This document shows positions 5,878-15,553 of a stretch of 24,445 nucleotides of DNA, in pieces. The notes below the pieces were generated by a model. The model made no database searches. It worked only from the letters and a program-made list of their open reading frames with translations, and had not been told where the DNA came from. Source of the stretch: Candidatus Hydrogenedentota bacterium (GTDB lineage Bacteria > Hydrogenedentota > Hydrogenedentia > Hydrogenedentales > SLHB01); assembly GCA_034408725.1 (NCBI GenBank), contig JAWXCN010000251.1:1-24445 (forward strand), written 5' to 3'. Every line of letters begins with the position of its first letter. The first letter of the stretch is position 1. The translations under genes were made by a program, and so were the position numbers.

Positions 5878-6315
5878 ATGAATATGAATAGCAGTTCTGC
5901 CGCCGTGAGCGCGGCGCGAAATACTTTCTCAGGGGTCAACAGCTTCTTACAGGAATGGCAGCTTTTGGGGCGTAACCGATCGAAGTTCGTCGAGCAAATG
6001 GAGCCGTTCCAGTATTGCCCGGCGGACATCACCTACAACAGTTTCAATCCTGACGCGCAACGCTTTGCCGAGGACTTCGCAAACGCGTTGTCGGAATCGG
6101 GGTGGAACATTACGATCGGTCCTTCATCGAAAGCAACGGACGGCATCAAAATCGTCACAAAATCCAGCGCGTTGCATGCCGGCGAAATCAGTGCGGTCGT
6201 GAAATGGCTGCGAAGCGCAGGCCTCGACGCTAAAGTACGCGTCAGACAGGAACTGGAAACCGAGGCGATCCAAATCGTATTCGGATCGATTCCCGAGGCC
6301 ATGCGGAAACTTTAG
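5878..6315 (+). CDS. Hypothetical alpha/beta protein, 145 aa
   Basis: Protein-like composition and an upstream promoter; pattern DAQRFAEDFANALSESGW..GIKI..L..AG..IQIVFG; family not recognised. Confidence 0.6.
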   Translation: MNMNSSSAAVSAARNTFSGVNSFLQEWQLLGRNRSKFVEQMEPFQYCPADITYNSFNPDAQRFAEDFANALSESGWNITIGPSSKATDGIKIVTKSSALHAGEISAVVKWLRSAGLDAKVRVRQELETEAIQIVFGSIPEAMRKL

Positions 6316-6651
6316 GTGATTTTGGATTCTGGATTGGGGGGCGCGGAATAGCATCCGTGTCTGTCCGTTTTATTGACTTGTCGTGGCATTTCACCGCTCA
6401 TACGGAATCCGCCGTTGGTGATGTTCATTGCGCACGAATTGCGCGGCAACGCAAAGCTACGCAATGGGCGCTTCGCGCCAAGCCTGGTCGAGGCGTTGTA
6501 TCCAGAACTCGCGATAAGCTGCTTTACGTATAAACTGATTAAATGTAAAGTACGCTTATAATCCGTCTTAAAAAGCAAAAATAAGTAAATAATAATTGAA
6601 ATAATCATATTTATTGTTGCGTGTTCGACATAAATATGAGATTATGTTTTT

Positions 6652-6923
6652 ATGCGTACCACGTTCGACCTTCCCGATGACCTCCACCGTTTGCTCAAAG
6701 CTCGGGCTGTGTTAAGCGGCGTATCCACATGGCAAATCTGCAGCAGTTTATAGAAGAAGGTTTGCGTGGCATGACCGAGAAACCGTTCCAACAATCCAAT
6801 CGGCGGGAGCCGCCCCCTGTGATTATCCCGCCGCGTGGCGTGCCGATTCCCGCTACTCCGCCAGCGGAACGCCGGCGGTTGGAAGAATCGGAGGACGAGG
6901 CGAAGCATGCCCGATCTTCTTGA
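6652..6923 (+). pseudogene. Frameshifted VapB-like ribbon-helix-helix antitoxin
   Basis: ATG 6652 reads MRTTFDLPDDLHRLLKARAVLSGVS and stops at 6753; the natural continuation MANLQQFIEEGLRG...PPVIIPPRGVPIP...EDEAKHARSS lies in another frame from 6729. Confidence 0.7.
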
Positions 6924-6960
6924 CAGTGAGCGCCCGGTTTCCATGCCGGGCGAGACTTGA
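6907..6960 (+). pseudogene. Truncated start of a VapC/PIN toxin
   Basis: ATG overlapping the antitoxin end reads MPDLLD, resembling PIN beta1 with its first Asp, then runs straight into a REP-like element. Confidence 0.45.
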
Positions 6961-7013
6961 AGCGGTAAAATCCTGCTCATAATCACGCCCGCCATGGAAG
7001 GCGGGGACGCTAC
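6926..7013. repeat. Inverted REP-like doublet
   Basis: GTGAGCGCCCGGTTTCCATGCCGGGCG (+, 6926-6952) and GTAGCGTCCCCGCCTTCCATGGCGGGCG (-, 6986-7013); each has an internal hairpin. Confidence 0.65.
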
Positions 7014-7061
7014 AAATTGAGATATTGGGACGTCTGCGACGGGCGTGTTAGGCGGCGATCC

Positions 7062-7283
7062 TTACGGATAGTAATCGTGGTTCCGGGAGGCGTCGGATGG
7101 AGTGCCCTTAATGAACCCGGCGAACTCCATCAAGTCGGAGTACATGCTATCGTGGGAGTTGGACCCGGACGACTGCGAAGCATCAAGGGAAATCAATTCA
7201 CATTGCACCCTGCTGCCGTCGGGCAGATCGATTGGGTCGTCCAGCACTACAGCACCGTTTTGGATTCGGCCTCGGTATGTCAT
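7062..7283 (-). CDS. Antitoxin-like protein (AF2212/DUF104-like), probably shortened at the C-terminus
   Basis: MTYRGRIQNGAVVLDDPIDLPDGSRV start and a PSDASRNHDYY end typical of small proteins upstream of PIN toxins; reads HDYYP*GSP where HDHYLYG-like sequence is expected. Confidence 0.65.
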   Translation of the reverse strand: MTYRGRIQNGAVVLDDPIDLPDGSRVQCELISLDASQSSGSNSHDSMYSDLMEFAGFIKGTPSDASRNHDYYP

Positions 7284-7435
7284 CGCGTGAATCCTCTAGT
7301 TCTTGCAGCAATATTATACAAGATGGACGTGCAAATGGACTAGACCACCATCGCCGGTGATGGGATACCCCATTTCCCGCACGTTTTCCCGGTTGACGTG
7401 GTAACCGATGCAGCCGGATTTTAGGAATGCCTGAC

Positions 7436-7636
7436 ATGCCAACGCTACAGGAAATCCAGTCACAAGTAACCGCGCTTTCGCAGGAAGATCTGGCTGCGTT
7501 CCGCGCGTGGTTTGACGAATTCGAGGCGGACGCATGGAACCGGCGAATCGAAGCCGATGCCAGGGCCGGTAAACTGGATGGTCCCATCGAACGGGCAAAG
7601 CGCGATGATGCGGCCGGGAAATCGACTCCGCTTTGA
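7436..7636 (+). CDS. Small antitoxin-like protein (addiction-module type, usually paired with a RelE/ParE toxin)
   Basis: MPTLQEIQSQVTALSQEDLAAFRAWFDEFEADAWNRRIEADARAGKLD pattern; AGGA RBS at 7423-7426. Confidence 0.7.
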   Translation: MPTLQEIQSQVTALSQEDLAAFRAWFDEFEADAWNRRIEADARAGKLDGPIERAKRDDAAGKSTPL

Positions 7637-7808
7637 GAAGATTCTGGGTGACCGTGGCTCCTTCTGCGACGATTTGAGTAGTCAGTCCCGGAATTGCACT
7701 CGCGCGCGTCCAATCTGCAGTCCATCCGTGATCCTCAGAACTCACTGTAATCTTGTAAGTGCAGAGAATTAGCATTACAATCCCATCTAGGTAGGGGAGT
7801 CGAATGCT

Positions 7809-10800
7809 ATGAGTACAAATCGAAAGCACCAAGTATTCGTCAGTTCCACCTTTTCTGACCTAGACAAAGAACGTTTGGGCGTGCTTGATGTTATTGCCAA
7901 AATGGGATGCATCGCAGCAGGCATGGAACTGTTTCCAGCCTCTCACAATACCGCATGGCGAGAAATTAAGCGAACAATAGATGAGTCGGATTACTATCTT
8001 CTGATTTTGGGCTCCCGATATGGCTCGCCCGGTCCTGACGGCATAAGTTATACTGAAATGGAATACCGCTATGCTTTAGAATTAGAAATACCAATCGTAG
8101 CGTTTGTACGCAAGTTAGACAATGTAGAGGAGTTGATAAACGATCCGCTTGAAATTCAAAAATTCATCCAGTTTCGCTCTTTAGTGAGCAAGCGACTATT
8201 CAAGCACTGGGTGACAACCCATGATCTGCAAATTGCTGTCTCAACAAGCCTACATCAATTGATATCTGATTATCCATCTCAAGGATGGCTCCGCGCCAAC
8301 CCAAAACCAATATCAACACCGGAAACGACATTGGAATCCAGCGAAACGCAAGCTGTGTCGCTTCGGGCACTAATAGCGTCGACATCTTGGATCGTCGGTG
8401 CCGTTAATTTTGATGAAGATCTGCATTTTTCTAGCTTCTACTTGCGGGCCTCAGCAAAGAAGAACCTAACGAAAGAAATCAAAGAACTTGGGTACAGTGC
8501 AATTATCGCAATTTACGAAGACTTCAATGAAAGGTACTATCTGCCCGAAAGCGAATGTGGAGATGTTGCCAAGGCCCTAGTAGAGAAGATGTTGATGGAG
8601 CCAGATTGGTTTCAGAAAGCGATACTGGATCAAATAAGTCTAAGGCTGCAAGCTTTAACCACTGTATTTAAGGATACCGCCCAAGCTCGTCCCTTTGAAA
8701 ACTTAACAGACAAGCAAATACTTGCGCTATACAAAAAACACAACGATGTGCATTCGTCGCTGTACGAAGTAGCTCGGATACCTGAAACACTTGATAGAGG
8801 TGTCGGATATTTTACGAAATACCTTAATGATTACCCGCGAGCACGTCTTGGGCCTTCTGCGTCGCCGTCCGCTGTTGGAGAAGTGTTCAGTGCCCTAACG
8901 CAGCCGGAAGAAAAGAGCAAAAAACTTGAAGAGCTTGAAGAGTTACTCTCCCTCTCGGTGCAAATAAGGCATGCTGCGAAAGACGGCATCTTTCAAGGCT
9001 CCTCGAAGCGCATGCTCTTGGAGTTAGATCCGGAGATGCTTGGAAAGATTATGAGACATCGGGACAGATGGTCTTTCTGGGGCTATCATGGTTACGGTAC
9101 CCGAGCAACTTTTGATATTAATCATTATTTAAAGCAAATTGGAGAAGCGTTAACAAAAGGTGCAATAAGCGGAATAGATCCAGTTCGTTATAGCGATATG
9201 CTCAAAAAGCACGAACTCCGCAGGATAGAACTTTTTGGCAAGCTCGATATAGATTCTCGACACCAAATGCTTTTTCGATTTTATTCCAGAATTGGCAACG
9301 CGAAACTCTCTAGGCGATTCGTTCAGCTGCGAAATTTCTATTATCTCGATTTGCTGATGATTGAAATTTCTCGACGTTTGCATCTTCGTGAAGGACAAGT
9401 AAGGTCGCTCCTTCCGGAGGAAGTAGAGAATTTGCTTCGTTCGAAAAAACGACCAGCGTTTCTGACTGCATCTCAACGAGCTCGCACAGAAAAGGCAGTT
9501 TTCATCATTTCCTCGAAACAAGAAGCGGTTCTTTCCGGTAAGGACCTGAGTTGGGTGAAGATAGAGATAAAAAAATATAGCCGCCCGGAATCCTCACGAG
9601 GACGGCAACTTACTGGAAATGTATTGTGTCAGGGAATTGCCCAGGGAAGAGCAGTGGTGATAAACCGTCGGGAGGACGCGATTGCATCCGGATTTAAAAA
9701 AGGCGATATTCTCGTCAGTCAAGCGGCTGATCCGGAACTAGCCGAAGTTATGGCTATGGCTTCTGCCGTTCTTGTCGAAACCGGTGGTGTTACATGTCAC
9801 GCCGCGATCATATGTCGTGAGTTGGGTAAGCCTGCGTTGTCTAACATCCATTCTCTGCTTGAGGAAATAAATACAGACGATTATGTCGTCGTGGACGCTT
9901 ACAATGCCACAGTGGAGATTCGTAGGCCGGAGGCACTCAAATATTGTAAGTGGCCCAAGGACTTGTCAGATAGTGATTCCGCAGAATTCGGGAAGAAGGC
10001 AACGACTTTGGCGCAGCTGTCTAGGAGCGGAATGAACGTTCCGCGCTTTTTTGCCATTTCTCTTAATCGCATTGAATTTACTAAAGACCCTCAGGATGCC
10101 ATTGGCCCGGAGAAAAATGATCTTATCGAAGAATTAAAAATAATGGCGGAATCCCTTGACGGACCCATGTTTATTATTCGAAGTAGTTTTGCAGATGAAG
10201 ATGCTGATTCATTAATAGCCGCGGGGCAGTACCCAAGTATTTCAAACATTGACAAGGAGGACTTTGCCTCCACAATTTTAGGAATGGTAGAACGAGCATC
10301 AGGTTTGCCAAAGGAAAGACTTGGCTCCCTGATTGTTCAGGACATGGTTTTGGCAGACTATTCAGGGGTATGCATTACAGAAGACGCTGTCACTGCATTT
10401 GCAGATAAAATCACTATCGAAATAGTACCTGGCAGTAACGAAATCCTGACGAATGGAAATGTTGTGCCAAAAACATATTCGTACAATAAGAATATGCATG
10501 TTGTAGACGAAGTAAATTCTGCGTCGTCTTGGGGGCGCTTAGTCGAGGGGGAAAAACTCCGGGAGATTGCCGAAGCGTGTATTAAGATTGAGACAATTTG
10601 CGGCCAGCCTCAGGATATCGAATGGACGCTAAAGGAGGACACGCTTTGGATCTTGCAATCACGGAGTATTCGTCGAGATAGACGCCGTGTGCTGGCACGT
10701 GCAGACTCCCTGTCTCATATCGAGCATGGGCTTCGGGATATTTCCATAATTTGCCGAGCATACTATGTACCGCCAAATGTTAAATTGCATCTACTTAGAG

Positions 10801-11390
10801 TCGCCGCAATTGGGGATTTTATTTGTGCTAAATGGAACGGCCCCAGAATAAATAGGGCCGTTATAATTAAAGCTCTGCTTTTGCATGACATTGGTAATAT
10901 AGTCAAGGCGGATTATCGCAGGTATCCAGATCTGTTTCCTGAAGAAACGCGAAATCTGAAGTATTGGATTGCCGTACAGCAACGCATCCGCGATAGATTT
11001 GGAGAAACGGACTTGAAAGCTACATTGAATATAGCTCGAGATATCGGAGTGGATAATGAAGTCTTAGAATTGATTCAGAACAAACAGTTTTTGCTGAATC
11101 AGGATACGTTAACTTCCGATTCTTGGGAACGTAAGATCGCGGCGTATGCGGATCAACGAGTCGGGCCACACGGAGTTCTCGGTCTTAATGCCCGACTCGC
11201 TGAGGCGAGGCGACGATACCATGGTGTTGATAACGCGAGCGTCAACTCTTCAAGCTTCGATCAGTTGGCGAGTTGCGCTATCGAAATCGAAAACAAACTT
11301 CAGAAAAATATGGCAGTGTTACTGCGCACCATCGATGACGCGTGTATAGCTATAATTATGAATGAAATTAGACGCGAGCCACTCTTTTGA
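7809..11390 (+). CDS. Multidomain protein: DUF4062, helical domain, PEP-utilizer phospho-His domain, PPDK/PEP-synthase-type ATP-grasp, HD domain
   Basis: VFVSSTFSDL..ER, GMELFPA, LGSRYGS, SYTEMEY (aa ~8-90); ETGGVTCHAAIICRELGKP (His664); GKKA, RSS..ED..AGQY, VQDMV, SGV, DIEW, LQSR (aa ~725-955); H994, HD1026-27, D1115; GGGGAG RBS; lower GC than the flanks. Confidence 0.88.
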   Translation: MSTNRKHQVFVSSTFSDLDKERLGVLDVIAKMGCIAAGMELFPASHNTAWREIKRTIDESDYYLLILGSRYGSPGPDGISYTEMEYRYALELEIPIVAFVRKLDNVEELINDPLEIQKFIQFRSLVSKRLFKHWVTTHDLQIAVSTSLHQLISDYPSQGWLRANPKPISTPETTLESSETQAVSLRALIASTSWIVGAVNFDEDLHFSSFYLRASAKKNLTKEIKELGYSAIIAIYEDFNERYYLPESECGDVAKALVEKMLMEPDWFQKAILDQISLRLQALTTVFKDTAQARPFENLTDKQILALYKKHNDVHSSLYEVARIPETLDRGVGYFTKYLNDYPRARLGPSASPSAVGEVFSALTQPEEKSKKLEELEELLSLSVQIRHAAKDGIFQGSSKRMLLELDPEMLGKIMRHRDRWSFWGYHGYGTRATFDINHYLKQIGEALTKGAISGIDPVRYSDMLKKHELRRIELFGKLDIDSRHQMLFRFYSRIGNAKLSRRFVQLRNFYYLDLLMIEISRRLHLREGQVRSLLPEEVENLLRSKKRPAFLTASQRARTEKAVFIISSKQEAVLSGKDLSWVKIEIKKYSRPESSRGRQLTGNVLCQGIAQGRAVVINRREDAIASGFKKGDILVSQAADPELAEVMAMASAVLVETGGVTCHAAIICRELGKPALSNIHSLLEEINTDDYVVVDAYNATVEIRRPEALKYCKWPKDLSDSDSAEFGKKATTLAQLSRSGMNVPRFFAISLNRIEFTKDPQDAIGPEKNDLIEELKIMAESLDGPMFIIRSSFADEDADSLIAAGQYPSISNIDKEDFASTILGMVERASGLPKERLGSLIVQDMVLADYSGVCITEDAVTAFADKITIEIVPGSNEILTNGNVVPKTYSYNKNMHVVDEVNSASSWGRLVEGEKLREIAEACIKIETICGQPQDIEWTLKEDTLWILQSRSIRRDRRRVLARADSLSHIEHGLRDISIICRAYYVPPNVKLHLLRVAAIGDFICAKWNGPRINRAVIIKALLLHDIGNIVKADYRRYPDLFPEETRNLKYWIAVQQRIRDRFGETDLKATLNIARDIGVDNEVLELIQNKQFLLNQDTLTSDSWERKIAAYADQRVGPHGVLGLNARLAEARRRYHGVDNASVNSSSFDQLASCAIEIENKLQKNMAVLLRTIDDACIAIIMNEIRREPLF

Positions 11391-11766
11391 TCTGCAGTGT
11401 GTGCAATTTTAAACTTGTACACGTATTTATACAAAGTTTTGGAATGTTGGGCCAATTTATGTTACAAACCAATAAAAGCTGACAGGGGCAATCCGGCGGA
11501 GCTGATGGTGGAGGCAGCGGCTGAGTAAACACGAGAGAGAGTCTGTCGCAAGTTTCTTTGGGATTGTCGAGGTTCCCGGTAAGGCTGTTTCATGTCCTGT
11601 GCTGCGGTTGGATTGTGGTAATGCAAAGCGGAAACTTCAAGAAGGCGTGCACTCACGTGAACAACTCGGGAGTGAACATTCGATTAAAGCGCGTACCACT
11701 TGGGAGCTCGGCGGAAGTCCAAGCAAAAACGCACTTTCCTACCCCATAACTCTTTTCAACTTAGAT

Positions 11767-11796
11767 TTGCCCCGCATCCCCGCCATATGCTATTCT
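11767..11796 (+). promoter_or_regulatory. rpsB-tsf promoter
   Basis: TTGCCC (11767-11772), 18-nt spacer, TG-C-TATTCT extended -10 (11788-11796). Confidence 0.6.
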
Positions 11797-11811
11797 CCCG
11801 CGTTCGCAAAT

Positions 11812-11920
11812 TCACAGGGGTCCGTCCTCATTACACGGACAGGGTGTCCGCCTTTGCCAAAACGGCTTGGTGGATAGTGCCGTGGGACCCCAAGGTTAAA
11901 CCCAAAGGGAGAGAAGAATC
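11812..11920 (+). promoter_or_regulatory. Structured rpsB 5' leader (S2 autoregulatory, t44-like)
   Basis: GGGGTCC (11817-23) pairs with GGACCCC (11885-91); CACGG (11834-38) with CCGTG (11880-84); GGGT in the internal loop; inner stem TGTCCGCC/GGTGGATA. Confidence 0.6.
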
Positions 11921-12778
11921 ATGCCTGTTGTCACCATGAGGCAACTGCTGGAGGCTGGAATCCATTTCGGCCACCAGACCCGCCGCTGGAACCCGAAGAT
12001 GGCCCGATATATTTTCGGGCAGCGCAACGGAATCTACATTATCGATCTGCAGAAGACGTTGAAGCAGATCAGCAAGGCGCACCAGTTTGTGCGGGACAGC
12101 GTTGCGCAGGGCGGATCGGTGCTGTTCGTGGGCACGAAGAAGCAGGCGCAGGAACCGATCCAGCGCGAGGCGGCGCGTTGCGGCATGTATTACATGACCA
12201 ACCGCTGGCTTGGCGGGACGCTCACCAACTTTGAGACCGTCCGCACGAGCATCAAGAACCTTGTCCGGCTCGAAGAACTCGATACCACCGGGCAGCTTGA
12301 AAAATATTCCAAGAAGGAGGCCGCGCGCCTTCGCCGCGAGATGGGCAAGCTGCGCAAAAACCTCGACGGCATCAAGACGATGGAAGGTCTTCCGACGGTC
12401 ATGTTCGTGATCGACGCGAAGAAGGAAGCCATCGCGGTGCGCGAAGCCGAACGCCTGGGCATCACCTGCATCGGCGTTGTCGATACGAATGCCGATCCGG
12501 ATGCGGTGCCGATTCCGGTTCCCGGAAACGACGACGCTATCCGCGCGATTGGTTTGTTCTGCTCGATCATCGCGGACGCGGCGATTGAGGGCAAGACCCA
12601 GTTCGAGAAAGTCCGCTCGGAACAGGCGCCACGCGGTCCCCGCGTTCGCCGCATTCCTGCGGGAAGCAGCGCCGCGGCAGATGCTTCGGCCGAACCCTCC
12701 GTGGAAACGGCTGAAGAACAATCCGAGGCGGGTGAACCCGTTGCAGTGGGCGTCGGCGATTCTGAAGGAGAGAAGTAG
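11921..12778 (+). CDS. rpsB: 30S ribosomal protein S2
   Basis: LLEAGIHFGHQTRRWNPKM, RWLGGTLTN, PGNDDAIR; low-complexity C-terminal tail. Confidence 0.99.
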   Translation: MPVVTMRQLLEAGIHFGHQTRRWNPKMARYIFGQRNGIYIIDLQKTLKQISKAHQFVRDSVAQGGSVLFVGTKKQAQEPIQREAARCGMYYMTNRWLGGTLTNFETVRTSIKNLVRLEELDTTGQLEKYSKKEAARLRREMGKLRKNLDGIKTMEGLPTVMFVIDAKKEAIAVREAERLGITCIGVVDTNADPDAVPIPVPGNDDAIRAIGLFCSIIADAAIEGKTQFEKVRSEQAPRGPRVRRIPAGSSAAADASAEPSVETAEEQSEAGEPVAVGVGDSEGEK

Positions 12779-12781
12779 AAC

Positions 12782-13384
12782 ATGGCCGAGGTCACAGCGA
12801 AGATGGTGAAGGACCTGCGCGAATCCACGGGCGCGGGGATGATGGATTGCAAGCAGGCGCTGAGCGAAGCCGCGGGCGACTACGACAAGGCGGTGATCTG
12901 GCTGCGCGAAAAAGGCATGGCGTCGGCGGCGAAGCGGGCAGACCGCGACGCGGGCGAAGGCGCGGTGTTTTCTTACATACACCTTGGCGGCAAGATTGGC
13001 GTGATGGTCGAGATTAATTGCGAGACCGATTTCGTTGCGCGCGGCGAGAAGTTCCAGCAGTTCGGCAAAGACGTGTGCATGCACATCAGCTTTGCCGATC
13101 CCAAATGGCTTCGTCGCGAAGACGTTCCCGGCGACGCGATGACCGCTGAAAAAGACATCTACGTCAAGCAGGCGGCCGAATCCGGCAAACCCGCGAATAT
13201 CTGCGAGAAGATCGCCGACGGCAAGATGAAGTCCTGGTACGAAACGGTATGTTTGCTCGAACAACCGTTTATCAAGGACAAGGACCGCACCATCGAAGAG
13301 ATCATGAAAGAGCTCAGCGGGCTGGTCGGCGAGAAGATTCAGGTACGCCGGTTCGCACGGTTCCAGTTGGGCGAGGGCCTGTAG
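12782..13384 (+). CDS. tsf: Elongation factor Ts (short ~200-aa form)
   Basis: [48 protein letters not shown]. Confidence 0.98.
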
Positions 13385-13416
13385 CCGCGCGTCTGCGCGA
13401 AGGAGATCGTGACCGC

Positions 13417-14136
13417 GTGGCAGTGCCTGTATACAAGCGCATTATGTTGAAGCTCAGCGGGGAGGCTTTGGAAGGCGATGGGGAAGACCCCATCGATTTC
13501 AAGACGGTCAGCCGTTTTTGCGACGAGATTGCGGAAGTGCGGAAGCTTGGGGTGGACATTGGCCTTGTGGTTGGCGGAGGCAATATCTTTCGCGGCGCGA
13601 AAGGTCTTGAAACCGGACTGGACCAACCCACTGGCGACTACATGGGCATGCTCGCTACGGTGATCAACGCGCTCGCGTTGCAGGCCATGCTCGAGCATAA
13701 AGGCGCGGCGACCCGCGTTATCACCGCCATCGAGATGCGGCCCGTCGCCGAGCCCTATATCCGCCGCCGCGCAATCCGGCATCTCGAAAAAGGGCGCGTC
13801 GTGATTTTCGGCGCGGGTACGGGCAATCCGTTTTTCACTACGGACACCGCCGCGGCCTTGCGCGCAAACGAAATCGGCGCGGAAATTCTGTTCAAGGCGA
13901 CCAAGGTGGATGGTATCTACGACGTGGATCCCGTCAAAAATCCGAACGCCAAGAAGTACGACGAGTTGTCGTATACGACCGCGCTGGCAAAGAATCTGCG
14001 TGTGATGGACGCCACGGCCATCTCCATGTGCCGCGAAAGCAAACTCCCGATACTGGTCTTCAATTTGAACGAGCCGGGCAGTATTATGAAGGCGGTGTGC
14101 GGTGAACGCATCGGCACACTGGTTAAAGGAGATTAA
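13417..14136 (+). CDS. pyrH: Uridylate kinase
   Basis: [41 protein letters not shown] 13417 after AGGAG. Confidence 0.98.
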
Positions 14137-14140
14137 GGCG

Positions 14141-14701
14141 ATGCTGCAACATCCTGTCCTGACAGACGCGCGCGCGAAAATGCAGAAAAGCCTCGAAGCG
14201 CTCGATCACGAGCTGGTCCACATTCGCACGGGCCGCGCATCAACGGGGATGCTCGACGCGCTCGAGATTGAAGTCTACGGCCAGAGAATGAAGATTAATC
14301 AGTTGGGGACGGTGTCCGCCCCTGAAGCGCGCCTGCTAACGATTACCCCGTGGGACAAGTCGCAGATGCCCGCGATCGAGAAAGCGATCTCGACGTCGTC
14401 GCTCGACCTGAATCCGTCGAACGACGGCAAGGTCATTCGCATTCCGATTCCGTCGCTCACCGAACAGCGGCGCAAGGACCTCGTGAAACACGTTCACAAG
14501 CTGGCGGAAGAGCAGCGCGTGTCTGTCCGGAATATTCGCCGTCACGCGGTGGAAGAGATCAAGAAAGAGCAGAAAGACGGGAAGGTTCCGGAAGACGACG
14601 CGCACAAGCTTACTGGTGAAGTTCAGAAAAGCACAGATGACCTCATCGCGAAGATCGACTCCAGCGTCAAGCGCAAAGAAGAAGAGATCATGGAAGTGTG
14701 A
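14141..14701 (+). CDS. frr: Ribosome recycling factor
   Basis: IRTGRAS, LNPSNDG, PSLTEQRRKDLVK, VRNIRR; ATG 14141 after AAGGAG. Confidence 0.98.
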   Translation: MLQHPVLTDARAKMQKSLEALDHELVHIRTGRASTGMLDALEIEVYGQRMKINQLGTVSAPEARLLTITPWDKSQMPAIEKAISTSSLDLNPSNDGKVIRIPIPSLTEQRRKDLVKHVHKLAEEQRVSVRNIRRHAVEEIKKEQKDGKVPEDDAHKLTGEVQKSTDDLIAKIDSSVKRKEEEIMEV

Positions 14702-14800
14702 CGGCGGCCCAGCGCCGGACGCCGGCGCGGGGTGCTGTTGATTGTATACTCGGCACCGCGGTTTGGCGCCCAAGCGCTTTTCCGCGGTTATTTTTTTGAC

Positions 14801-15553
14801 ATGCAGACATACAAAAGCACAACGATGATAGAAGCACCAGAGATCGATCCAGAGCGCCTGCCCCGGCACGTCGCCGTCATCATGGACGGGAATGGCCGTT
14901 GGGCCAAGCGGGAGGGTGTGTCGCGCGCCGCGGGGCACGAAGCCGGGGCAAAAAGCGTGCGCGCGATTGTCGAGGCGTGCCGCGAACTGCAACACATTGA
15001 GGTGCTCACGTTGTATGCGTTCTCGACCGAAAACTGGCGGCGTTCGGCGTTGGAAGTAAACGCACTGTTTCGACTTTTGAGCAAATACGTCAAGATCGAA
15101 CTCGAGAGCATTCACAAGGAAAATATCCGGGTTACCGTCATGGGCAGAATGGCGGGTCTTCCGAAGCAGGCCGTAGCCGATCTCGAATATTCGATGGACC
15201 GCACCCGATCGAACTCGGCGATGATTCTGAACGTCGCCATCAACTACGGTGGCCGCGCCGAGATCGCCGACGCCGCGAAACGCATCGCGCGAGACGTGAA
15301 TGACGGCAAACTCGAAGCGAATGATATCGATGAAGCGACGTTCGCGAAGTACCTGTACGTGCCCGATATCCCCGATCCGGACCTGTTGATTCGCACGAGC
15401 GGGGAGTTGCGCCTCAGCAATTTCATGCTCTGGCAGATGTCGTACACGGAAATCGTCGCGCTTCCAACGCTGTGGCCGGACTTCCGCAAGCAGCATTTGC
15501 ACGAAGCCATCGCGGAATTCCAGGCGCGCGGCCGCAGGTTTGGGGGCCGCTAG
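14801..15553 (+). CDS. uppS: Isoprenyl transferase / undecaprenyl diphosphate synthase
   Basis: HVAVIMDGNGRWA, YAFSTENWRR, NYGGRAEI, IRTSGELRLSNF, RRFGG; start is 14801 or 14825. Confidence 0.97.
   Translation: MQTYKSTTMIEAPEIDPERLPRHVAVIMDGNGRWAKREGVSRAAGHEAGAKSVRAIVEACRELQHIEVLTLYAFSTENWRRSALEVNALFRLLSKYVKIELESIHKENIRVTVMGRMAGLPKQAVADLEYSMDRTRSNSAMILNVAINYGGRAEIADAAKRIARDVNDGKLEANDIDEATFAKYLYVPDIPDPDLLIRTSGELRLSNFMLWQMSYTEIVALPTLWPDFRKQHLHEAIAEFQARGRRFGGR

Follow-up and report, generated by a model that had tools for sequence, protein, structure and literature searches.

A candidate immune protein that joins a predicted DUF4062/NIR NADase to a putative dikinase and HD phosphohydrolase in a Candidatus Hydrogenedentota genome

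We have found that a gene on a contig of Candidatus Hydrogenedentota bacterium (assembly GCA_034408725.1, contig JAWXCN010000251.1) encodes a protein of 1193 amino acids (aa), here called P0001, in which a TIR-like DUF4062/NIR head is joined to what are predicted to be a small-molecule dikinase and an HD phosphohydrolase. The window we analysed is the entire contig of 24,445 bases, one of the 280 contigs of an assembly that is 92% complete, and the gene, which a search of the source genome found in a single copy, occupies positions 7809-11390 of the forward strand, stop codon included. We propose that P0001 is a single-chain abortive-infection immune protein whose NADase is governed by a dikinase/HD cycle acting on a small ligand, probably one that resembles a nucleotide, and we judge the chances of this proposal to be about even. 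It is grounded in the domains that make up the protein, their folds, the invariant residues, the exchange of heads, the split operons, and the rarity of the gene and its location in an island; from these we infer an enzymatic cycle, what kind of ligand it acts on, whether the control activates or inhibits, and a role in defence.

In the mechanism we envisage, the N-terminal DUF4062/NIR domain would act as the weapon by destroying NAD+ as a TIR-like NADase, and the remaining ~1000 residues would form a control module made of a dikinase of the RPH (rifampin phosphotransferase) or HpeHI kind and an HD phosphohydrolase. Phosphate taken from ATP by the ATP-grasp domain would be loaded onto His664, the swivel domain would deliver it to a ligand held in the invariant pocket of a helical domain, and the HD domain would strip the phosphate off again or degrade the product. 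How much phosphorylated product is present, or an enzyme state linked to it, would then set the effector on or off, in cis in the fused proteins and, in the split operons described below, possibly by way of the nucleotide-binding barrel of a Cap15-like membrane effector.

Domain architecture of P0001

The gene opens with ATG and has no internal stop, in keeping with the one uninterrupted open reading frame (ORF) given in a preliminary description of this DNA. Five parts can be told apart, namely the DUF4062 head (aa 1-178), a helical domain (186-595), a swivel with His664, an ATP-grasp domain (~713-960) and an HD domain (~975-1193), and the Pfam scan of P0001 gave four matches, each exceeding the gathering score. 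A search for proteins of the same architecture, which the preliminary description had recommended, found P0003 (1188 aa) and P0005 (1143 aa); both come from other sources, are 45-46% identical to P0001 and have all five parts. We rejected an assembly chimera because these two proteins share the architecture and because one contig from sequencing run X2 spans 7459-11995 with 0 differences; the fusion is thus real. The runs behind this check are microbial-mat metagenomes, all from 2018, which may belong to one sampling campaign and are perhaps not independent of the source. Other contigs from runs X3, X4 and X5 share ~8368-8581 with the window and then diverge (window 8465 and 8493); this stretch codes for the motif that is best conserved in the helical domain, and a second related gene may exist in the same community.

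The head and its stalk occupy aa 1-178 (7809-8342, forward strand). PF13271 (DUF4062) covers aa 8-89 with an E value of 2.8e-27, confirming the domain recognized earlier at the N-terminus, and aa 3-178 align at ~50% identity (E 2e-36) with KpSwz (10wc_A) over its solved DUF4062 domain and stalk. KpSwz is a Swarozyc defence protein, reported to be a NADase that the phage portal activates and that leads to abortive infection (10.64898/2026.05.01.722283). The catalytic Glu of the DUF4062/NIR domain is given as E97 in KpSwz and E98 in Vulcan, and E85 of P0001 (codon 8061-8063) aligns with the mutated Ala of the E97A chain 10wc_A, on the position of the KpSwz catalytic Glu; E83, E85 and Y86 are also conserved in P0003 and P0005. 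By sequence, the head is closely related to a NADase whose part in defence has been shown by experiment, and NADase activity is predicted for it. The domain is reported to be a modular effector across several defence systems (10.64898/2026.09.04.749371), and its label as a domain of unknown function has been overtaken by three 2026 preprints, which show DUF4062 to be a NADase effector.

The match to 10wc_A ends at chain residue 179 of 326, where the AUX domain of KpSwz would start. Since this C-terminal AUX domain is absent from P0001, we rejected membership of P0001 in Swarozyc. A 346-aa protein that matches KpSwz over its full length (E 6.9e-60, chain 2-324) and is 46% identical to the P0001 head is encoded at L082:988-2028, on the reverse strand, in G014, a genome of the window genome's family. 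Because a complete Swarozyc-type gene sits in this related genome, genes of that type are, to judge from sequence, a plausible origin of the P0001 head.

Downstream of the helical domain lies a phospho-His swivel (aa ~596-712; 9594-9944, forward strand) with the motif GGVTCH, His664 of which is encoded at 9798-9800. PEP-utilizers (PF00391; PEP, phosphoenolpyruvate) covers aa 629-699 with an E value of 3.9e-19, and PpsA and RPH chains in the PDB match as well. It is followed by an ATP-grasp domain of the PpsA/PPDK type (aa ~713-960; 9945-10688, forward strand), to which PPDK_N (PF01326) matches at aa 780-960 (E 1.5e-19) and whose profile also matches the ATP-grasp domains of PpsA and of RPH (5hv1/5fbs). 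H664, K730, R791, E797, D936, E938, Q950 and R952 are invariant in 42/42 members of the family introduced below, among them the swivel His, the Lys and the ATP-grasp motifs that had been picked out by eye. The Pfam scan found no PEP/pyruvate TIM barrel (PEP-utilizers_C, PF02896) in P0001, and the NCBIfam models of PpsA, PPDK, RPH and PigC gave only piecewise matches far under their cut-offs (122 bits against a cut-off of 598 for PpsA; 46 against 843 for PPDK). With the barrel missing and the full-length equivalog scores far too low, we rejected an identity as PpsA or PPDK, as the preliminary description had also done. We note that long ORFs with 4-7 tandem swivels, some with an ATP-grasp domain, were seen by tblastn in metagenome-assembled genomes (MAGs) of Patescibacteria and Woesearchaeota (L020, L028, L034 and L039), an unusual arrangement.

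The C-terminal part (aa ~975-1193; 10731-11387, forward strand) is predicted to be an HD metal-dependent phosphohydrolase on the strength of a Pfam match, a structure model and a fold search. PF01966 matches aa 994-1097 (E 1.4e-5; 25.7 bits against a cut-off of 22), and the H...HD...D ligands noted earlier, H994, H1026, D1027 and D1115, are invariant in 28/28 HD-bearing members. The model (predicted local distance difference test score, pLDDT, 87.5) finds HD-superfamily folds at Z 7.4-9.7 (50 rows, read as solved HD-domain proteins), with Z tied between phosphodiesterases (including those for cGAMP and c-di-AMP), alarmone hydrolases, HD-GYP proteins, 5'-nucleotidase-like proteins and small HD hydrolases, and its sequence is weakly nearest to HDDC2, OxsA and YfbR. 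Two tandem HD copies of the type found in the P0001 family, with no dikinase, make up P0176 (442 aa) and P0090 (439 aa).

Between head and swivel lies the ~400-aa helical region of the preliminary description, a family-specific domain (aa 186-595; 8364-9593, forward strand) that matches no Pfam family and no PDB sequence at E<=10, even with a 17-sequence profile. Its model is mostly helical (pLDDT 91.1; predicted TM-score, pTM, 0.88). Foldseek placed RPH-Lm of Listeria at ranks 1-5 and 7 (E 8e-3 to 0.1, probability 0.94-1.00), and VIA, which is independent of Foldseek, placed 5hv1_A first (Z 11.3, root-mean-square deviation 6.2, 340/410 residues, chain 323-753; runner-up Z 6.6), figures that have to be read with the caution, unfavourable to our proposal, that the Foldseek E values are >0.001 and that helical models may reach Z ~14 by chance. 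A local hhalign match was confined to the final helices of the region and the first part of the swivel. That the domain has the RPH rifampin-binding (substrate-binding) fold is made credible, though not proven, by the coverage of the model match and by the agreement between two programs. Because the model matches this region of RPH, the core may be read as a small-molecule dikinase with reordered domains to which an HD domain is added. A barrel-less small-molecule dikinase of the RPH type, made of swivel, ATP-grasp and helical domain and accompanied by an HD domain, is thus supported by sequence and model, its catalysis being predicted.

Within the helical domain D202, E203, D204, H206, R323, E326, D329, R330 and H427 are invariant in 39/39 members and K499, R502, R503 and Q506 in 40/40. 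Because these acidic, His and Lys/Arg residues of the pocket do not vary, they suggest a fixed small ligand that bears a phosphate or a metal and is probably nucleotide-derived. The same residues bear on the possibility that P0001 is an RPH-like phosphotransferase of xenobiotics or antibiotics, or a phenol catabolic kinase like HpeHI, with extra domains. RPH does offer the nearest substrate-binding fold and is described as a wide family of small-molecule dikinases (PMC4844700; PMC12167813). However, the helical domain lacks sequence similarity to RPH-like proteins, its invariant charged pocket (DED-H, K/R/R) is ill-suited to a hydrophobic drug or phenol, and neither a NADase head nor an HD domain that undoes the modification would make sense in resistance or catabolism, and we therefore give a drug or phenol kinase very little credence.

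Exchange of heads and split operons

Searching 5.8 billion proteins yielded a family of 42, the query included, at E <= 2.6e-114, to which an exhaustive scan of 1.84 billion cluster representatives added further members. The core is conserved from ~aa 186 on, and its catalytic residues are invariant wherever covered. What precedes the core is not constant: the 33 full-length relatives with a head fall into nine head classes. The largest, class A, is an unexplained head of ~480 aa (12 of the 33); PNP_UDP_1 is found in six (three assigned by Pfam, the other three because BLAST clusters them with these), PRTase-CE in five, DUF4062 in three and an unknown head of ~206 aa in another three, and Metallophos, a wHTH+BTAD head (P0051) and two unknowns occur once each. 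BLAST clustering finds no relation between the classes, and the hhalign probability was <1% in every comparison made. For the class A head there is no Pfam match, and the Atlas gives no more than a lead, HD-CE (0.89); no Pfam family matches heads E, F and I, which show no relation to DUF4062. One relative has a C-terminal AAA domain instead. In a quick maximum likelihood tree of the core, heads mostly track clades and have been replaced several times, with PNP in two separate clades, and the nearest relative of P0001 (P0002, 54% identity) carries a different head while being nested within the DUF4062 clade. There are also shorter forms, some of ~770 aa without head and HD and others of ~515 aa with only the helical domain and the swivel. 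PNP, PRTase-CE and DUF4062 recur as effector domains of defence systems (10.64898/2026.09.04.749371; PMC13712802).

Members with the ~480-aa head directly precede a TPR_12/TPR_10 gene of ~301-305 aa at L004:12988-13902, L099:4898-5800 and L104:8455-9357; since these three loci are close relatives, the pattern counts once.

Two metagenome loci, L103 and L100, whose cores are 41% identical, present the core in a different form, as tightly packed operons of an HD gene, a Cap15-like gene and an HD-less core (6460-7176, 7203-7829 and 7838-10153 in L103; 4870-5520, 5520-6200 and 6200-8500 in L100). The stand-alone HD proteins of these operons have 217-239 aa and are of the P0001-family type, and the middle protein combines two predicted transmembrane helices with a PF18153 Cap15_CD_rec domain (E 1e-18 and 2e-19, exceeding the cut-off). 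L005 is the same element as L100, with its gene broken by the contig end. Proteins of the S-2TMbeta type are nucleotide-binding membrane effectors of CBASS and Panoptes, the ligand turning Cap15 on and holding OptE of Panoptes off (PMC12657218). Neither P0001 nor the 10 scanned neighbours of L100, L103 and L099 include a nucleotidyltransferase or cyclase (CD-NTase, mCpol). Because a Cap15-like receptor effector shares an operon with the core and an HD protein, by analogy the dikinase and HD domains may make and remove a diffusible nucleotide-like ligand, and the split operons are the strongest hint in this direction.

Cap15_CD_rec was not found in the genomes of L005, L006, L008, L010 and L011. 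Membrane proteins also occur beside two further HD-less cores: that of L010 adjoins a gene for a 213-aa protein with three hydrophobic segments, and that of L105 has a convergent neighbour with a nucleoside-deoxyribosyltransferase (NDT) domain and about six hydrophobic segments; we regard both as leads only.

The behaviour of OptE raises the possibility of an inverted, Panoptes-like logic, in which a constitutively made product keeps the effector off and its loss upon infection (through a drop in ATP, a phage sponge or a phage hydrolase) frees the NADase. In its favour, the S-2TMbeta protein OptE is kept inactive by its ligand (PMC12657218), members of the same effector family occur in the split operons, and a strongly conserved pocket suits a self-made ligand. 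On the other hand, an HD eraser in the same chain would drive self-killing unless it were regulated, and we see only a slim chance that the system works in this way.

It is also conceivable that the dikinase-HD core is not a controller at all but a second weapon, which, once triggered, would work beside the NADase, PNP or PRTase heads and deprive the phage of nucleotides, either through a futile cycle of dikinase phosphorylation and HD dephosphorylation (ATP to AMP and phosphate) or by degrading a nucleotide pool. The catalytic residues of both enzymes are all invariant, most of the named heads act on nucleotides or NAD, and the HD model resembles nucleotide phosphohydrolases and phosphodiesterases, which speaks for such a weapon. 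It would, however, leave the sensing of infection unexplained, along with the non-enzymatic wHTH+BTAD head of P0051 and the operon with a Cap15-like ligand-receptor barrel, and HD-less cores exist; we consider it unlikely.

Genomic context and distribution

The P0001 gene sits in a low-GC accessory island (6290-11760) together with short ORFs of no family. Its GC content is ~0.45 against ~0.58 for the contig, in line with the low-GC setting of the preliminary description, and blastn similarity to same-genus genomes (L181-L183) stops near 6290 and resumes near 11760, just before rpsB. The left edge of the island is bridged by contigs from runs X2 and X3. Flanking repeats that might mark an integration site came down to short imperfect matches of chance size, and a clean empty site was not found in the same-genus genomes because the island flanks are not adjacent there, lying on different contigs or in other contexts.

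No full-length orthologue occurs in 40 relatives of the source genome (0/40). The helical-domain profile found nothing in other genomes of the same phylum (0/134), of the phylum of the L005 genome (0/400) or of the class of the L003 genome (0/398), so that the core was found in none of the 932 other genomes sampled overall (0/932). The family is scattered over Bacillota, Syntrophaceae, Planctomycetota, Caulobacteraceae, Acidobacteriota, Nitrospira and one Thermoplasmata archaeon, and the gene has a lower GC content than its flanks at 10 of 13 other family loci. Rare and low in GC, the P0001 gene belongs to the accessory part of the genome, in an island acquired horizontally.

Mobile-element genes adjoin several relatives. 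Among the immediate neighbours of relatives are IS66 TnpB, a YhgA-like transposase, a YhcG/DUF1016 nuclease (PADLOC candidate PDC-S02), a dCTP-deaminase-like protein and TPR proteins, and no partner gene is conserved across the family lineages. Around five HD-containing loci, 57 pooled neighbours include four defence-type matches (YhcG/PDC-S02, a methyltransferase, mad3 and a viperin-like protein). In L009, from a Thermoplasmata archaeon MAG marked unpublished, the family gene is split within the ATP-grasp domain by an insertion of ~1.4 kb that carries an opposite-strand ORF of 448 aa, and the adjoining gene encodes a viperin-like radical-SAM protein (PADLOC pVip, E 3.6e-69, full length).

The remaining features of the island are less distinct. 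A promoter-like TTGTAA-17-TACAAT at 7753-7781 and a Shine-Dalgarno-like GGGGAG at 7794-7799, which in our reading of the sequence ends 9 nt 5' of the P0001 ATG, make up a possible start region (7753-7799, forward strand); the promoter call is weak because a consensus scan found 8 sites against 6.5 expected. No convincing gene occupies the ~1.5 kb upstream (6300-7800), where the ORFs at 7062-7283 (reverse), 7427-7636 (forward) and 6729-6920 (forward) have no Pfam match, and this stretch looks like the decayed remains of small genes. The toxin-antitoxin-rich setting suggested in the preliminary description is barely supported, coming down to one fragment of 33 aa at 6652-6750 (forward strand) that resembles the N-terminus of a ribbon-helix-helix antitoxin (PF22513, FitA-like_RHH, E 4.5e-4, below the cut-off) and is probably a gene remnant. 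Rfam and tRNA scans of the window gave no matches. Directly downstream, at 11921-14701, are rpsB, tsf, pyrH and frr, assigned by eye from their translations.

Discussion

We rate P0001 as a candidate effector-plus-controller immune protein whose controller would be unprecedented and whose DUF4062/NIR effector is already known. The earlier supposition that the architecture is absent from described systems has held, in that our literature search found no description of it, nor of a dikinase module in any defence or conflict system. The main texts of the three 2026 DUF4062/NIR preprints, to which the comparison was confined, likewise contain no mention of a dikinase, PEP-utili, ATP-grasp or phosphohistidine. 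The closest likeness on the effector side is to KpSwz, which is also a single gene with the effector first and a C-terminal region after it, and whose head is ~50% identical and has the catalytic Glu. The two nevertheless differ in that KpSwz has 326 aa and a small portal-binding AUX domain, whereas P0001 has a dikinase-HD module of ~1000 aa. The other DUF4062/NIR NADase defence proteins are Evangelion, Vulcan, Vesta and NIR-Avs, of which Vulcan is described as having HEAT repeats and Avs a STAND NTPase.

On the side of the controller, P0001 resembles RPH, HpeHI, CreHI and PpsAB in its ATP-grasp domain, its His swivel, its RPH-fold helical domain and the lack of a PEP/pyruvate barrel. The order of these parts sets P0001 and RPH apart: P0001 has substrate-binding domain, swivel and ATP-grasp, and RPH has ATP-grasp, substrate-binding domain and swivel (PMC4844700). 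The order in P0001 is that of HpeH (substrate-binding domain and swivel) fused head-to-tail to HpeI (ATP-grasp) (PMC12167813). In addition to being permuted relative to RPH, P0001 has no sequence similarity to it in the helical domain, is fused to an HD domain and effector heads, and has a charged pocket. Genes for a swivel and an ATP-grasp protein, neighbouring and in swivel-then-grasp order, are found on Deinococcus radiodurans plasmid records (e.g. NC_000959.1:1616-2777).

Two known kinds of system offer parallels in layout. The resemblance to CBASS and Panoptes is confined to L100 and L103, which have a signal-maker and an effector with a Cap15 receptor, the HD protein being a possible eraser; there, however, the putative signal maker would be a phospho-His dikinase, and in P0001 the effector is fused and there is no separate receptor domain. 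The STAND/NLR-like and other NTP-dependent conflict systems whose N-terminal effectors are swapped (Kaur et al. 2020, PMC7159879) share with the P0001 family a conserved NTP-consuming centre and interchangeable effector heads (TIR-like, PNP and others), but their centre is a P-loop NTPase and that of P0001 an ATP-grasp/phospho-His dikinase with an HD domain. The text of PMC7159879 does not mention swivel, PEP-utili, ATP-grasp or DUF4062.

Several observations weigh against the interpretation of P0001 as a dikinase-controlled immune protein and should be set beside the caution about the fold match given above. No PADLOC-DB v2 model matched P0001 (0 families at E<=1). Comparing the helical-domain profile with those of two RPH-like sequences gave a probability of 0.2% and thus no link, and the domain is strongly conserved, whereas typical sensors of phage proteins diversify. 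Five of the seven independent cores without HD (L101, L102, L105, L008 and L010) have no adjacent HD or Cap15-like gene. Neighbourhoods are mixed and only loosely defence-like, with plsX, rnc and smc among the 57 neighbours, and the gene of P0001 itself adjoins rpsB, a housekeeping cluster being an unusual place for a gene of the defence type. Among viral contigs, phage records and plasmids there was no family member, only single-domain matches. A phage contig from human faeces, MT835728.1, which is unannotated, encodes at 14007-15491 a protein with helical domain and swivel that is 26% identical to aa 189-704. Lastly, PNP, PRTase, NDT-like and HD proteins are also ordinary enzyme types of nucleotide salvage.

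This last group of enzymes is the basis of a further alternative, in which P0001 would be a metabolic multi-enzyme of nucleoside or nucleotide salvage or modification whose dikinase phosphorylates, whose HD domain dephosphorylates and whose heads exchange or remove bases. PNP_UDP_1, PRTase, NDT-like and HD 5'-nucleotidase-like proteins are the classical enzymes of salvage, several HD-less cores lie beside ordinary genes (LysR, MFS, 3-keto-disaccharide hydrolase), and the gene of P0001 is next to rpsB-tsf-pyrH. Against this, the nearest relative of the head is a NADase of proven toxicity, the family is extremely rare and patchy and of atypical GC content, and the swapped heads include wHTH+BTAD and AAA and one operon type includes a membrane effector. 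Both this alternative and the drug or phenol kinase are a poor fit to a head of the Swarozyc type, to so rare a family, to an exchange of heads that extends to a DNA-binding one and to the membrane-effector operon, and we regard a salvage enzyme as rather improbable.

We return, therefore, to an immune protein in which a dikinase and an HD domain control an effector. What the preliminary description had read as a writer, an eraser and an effector in one chain has gained from the NADase-type head, the combination of dikinase and HD, the swapped heads and the split operons with Cap15, and has found no backing in a PADLOC match or in neighbourhoods that are more than loosely defence-like. A more far-reaching version of this reading is that the family uses a new immune messenger chemistry, in which the dikinase writes onto a nucleotide-like molecule, the HD domain erases and swappable effectors, fused or Cap15-like, read; we put this forward tentatively, as a possibility less likely than not but with a fair chance. 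If it were true, there would be a messenger pathway independent of CD-NTases, cyclases, TIR and Cas10.

The effectors of known anti-phage systems are switched in three main ways, by P-loop NTPases, by direct binding of a phage protein and by nucleotide messengers, which are made by nucleotidyltransferases, cyclases or TIR domains. Should our proposal for P0001 be correct, these would be joined by a further kind of control module, a conserved ATP-grasp/phospho-His dikinase that carries its own HD eraser at the heart of an immune family with exchangeable heads, and possibly by a new messenger chemistry, and the newly recognised DUF4062/NIR NADase effector would gain a partner of the enzyme type. 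The split operons would then provide a way to the ligand, since the receptor barrel of their Cap15-like protein could capture it.

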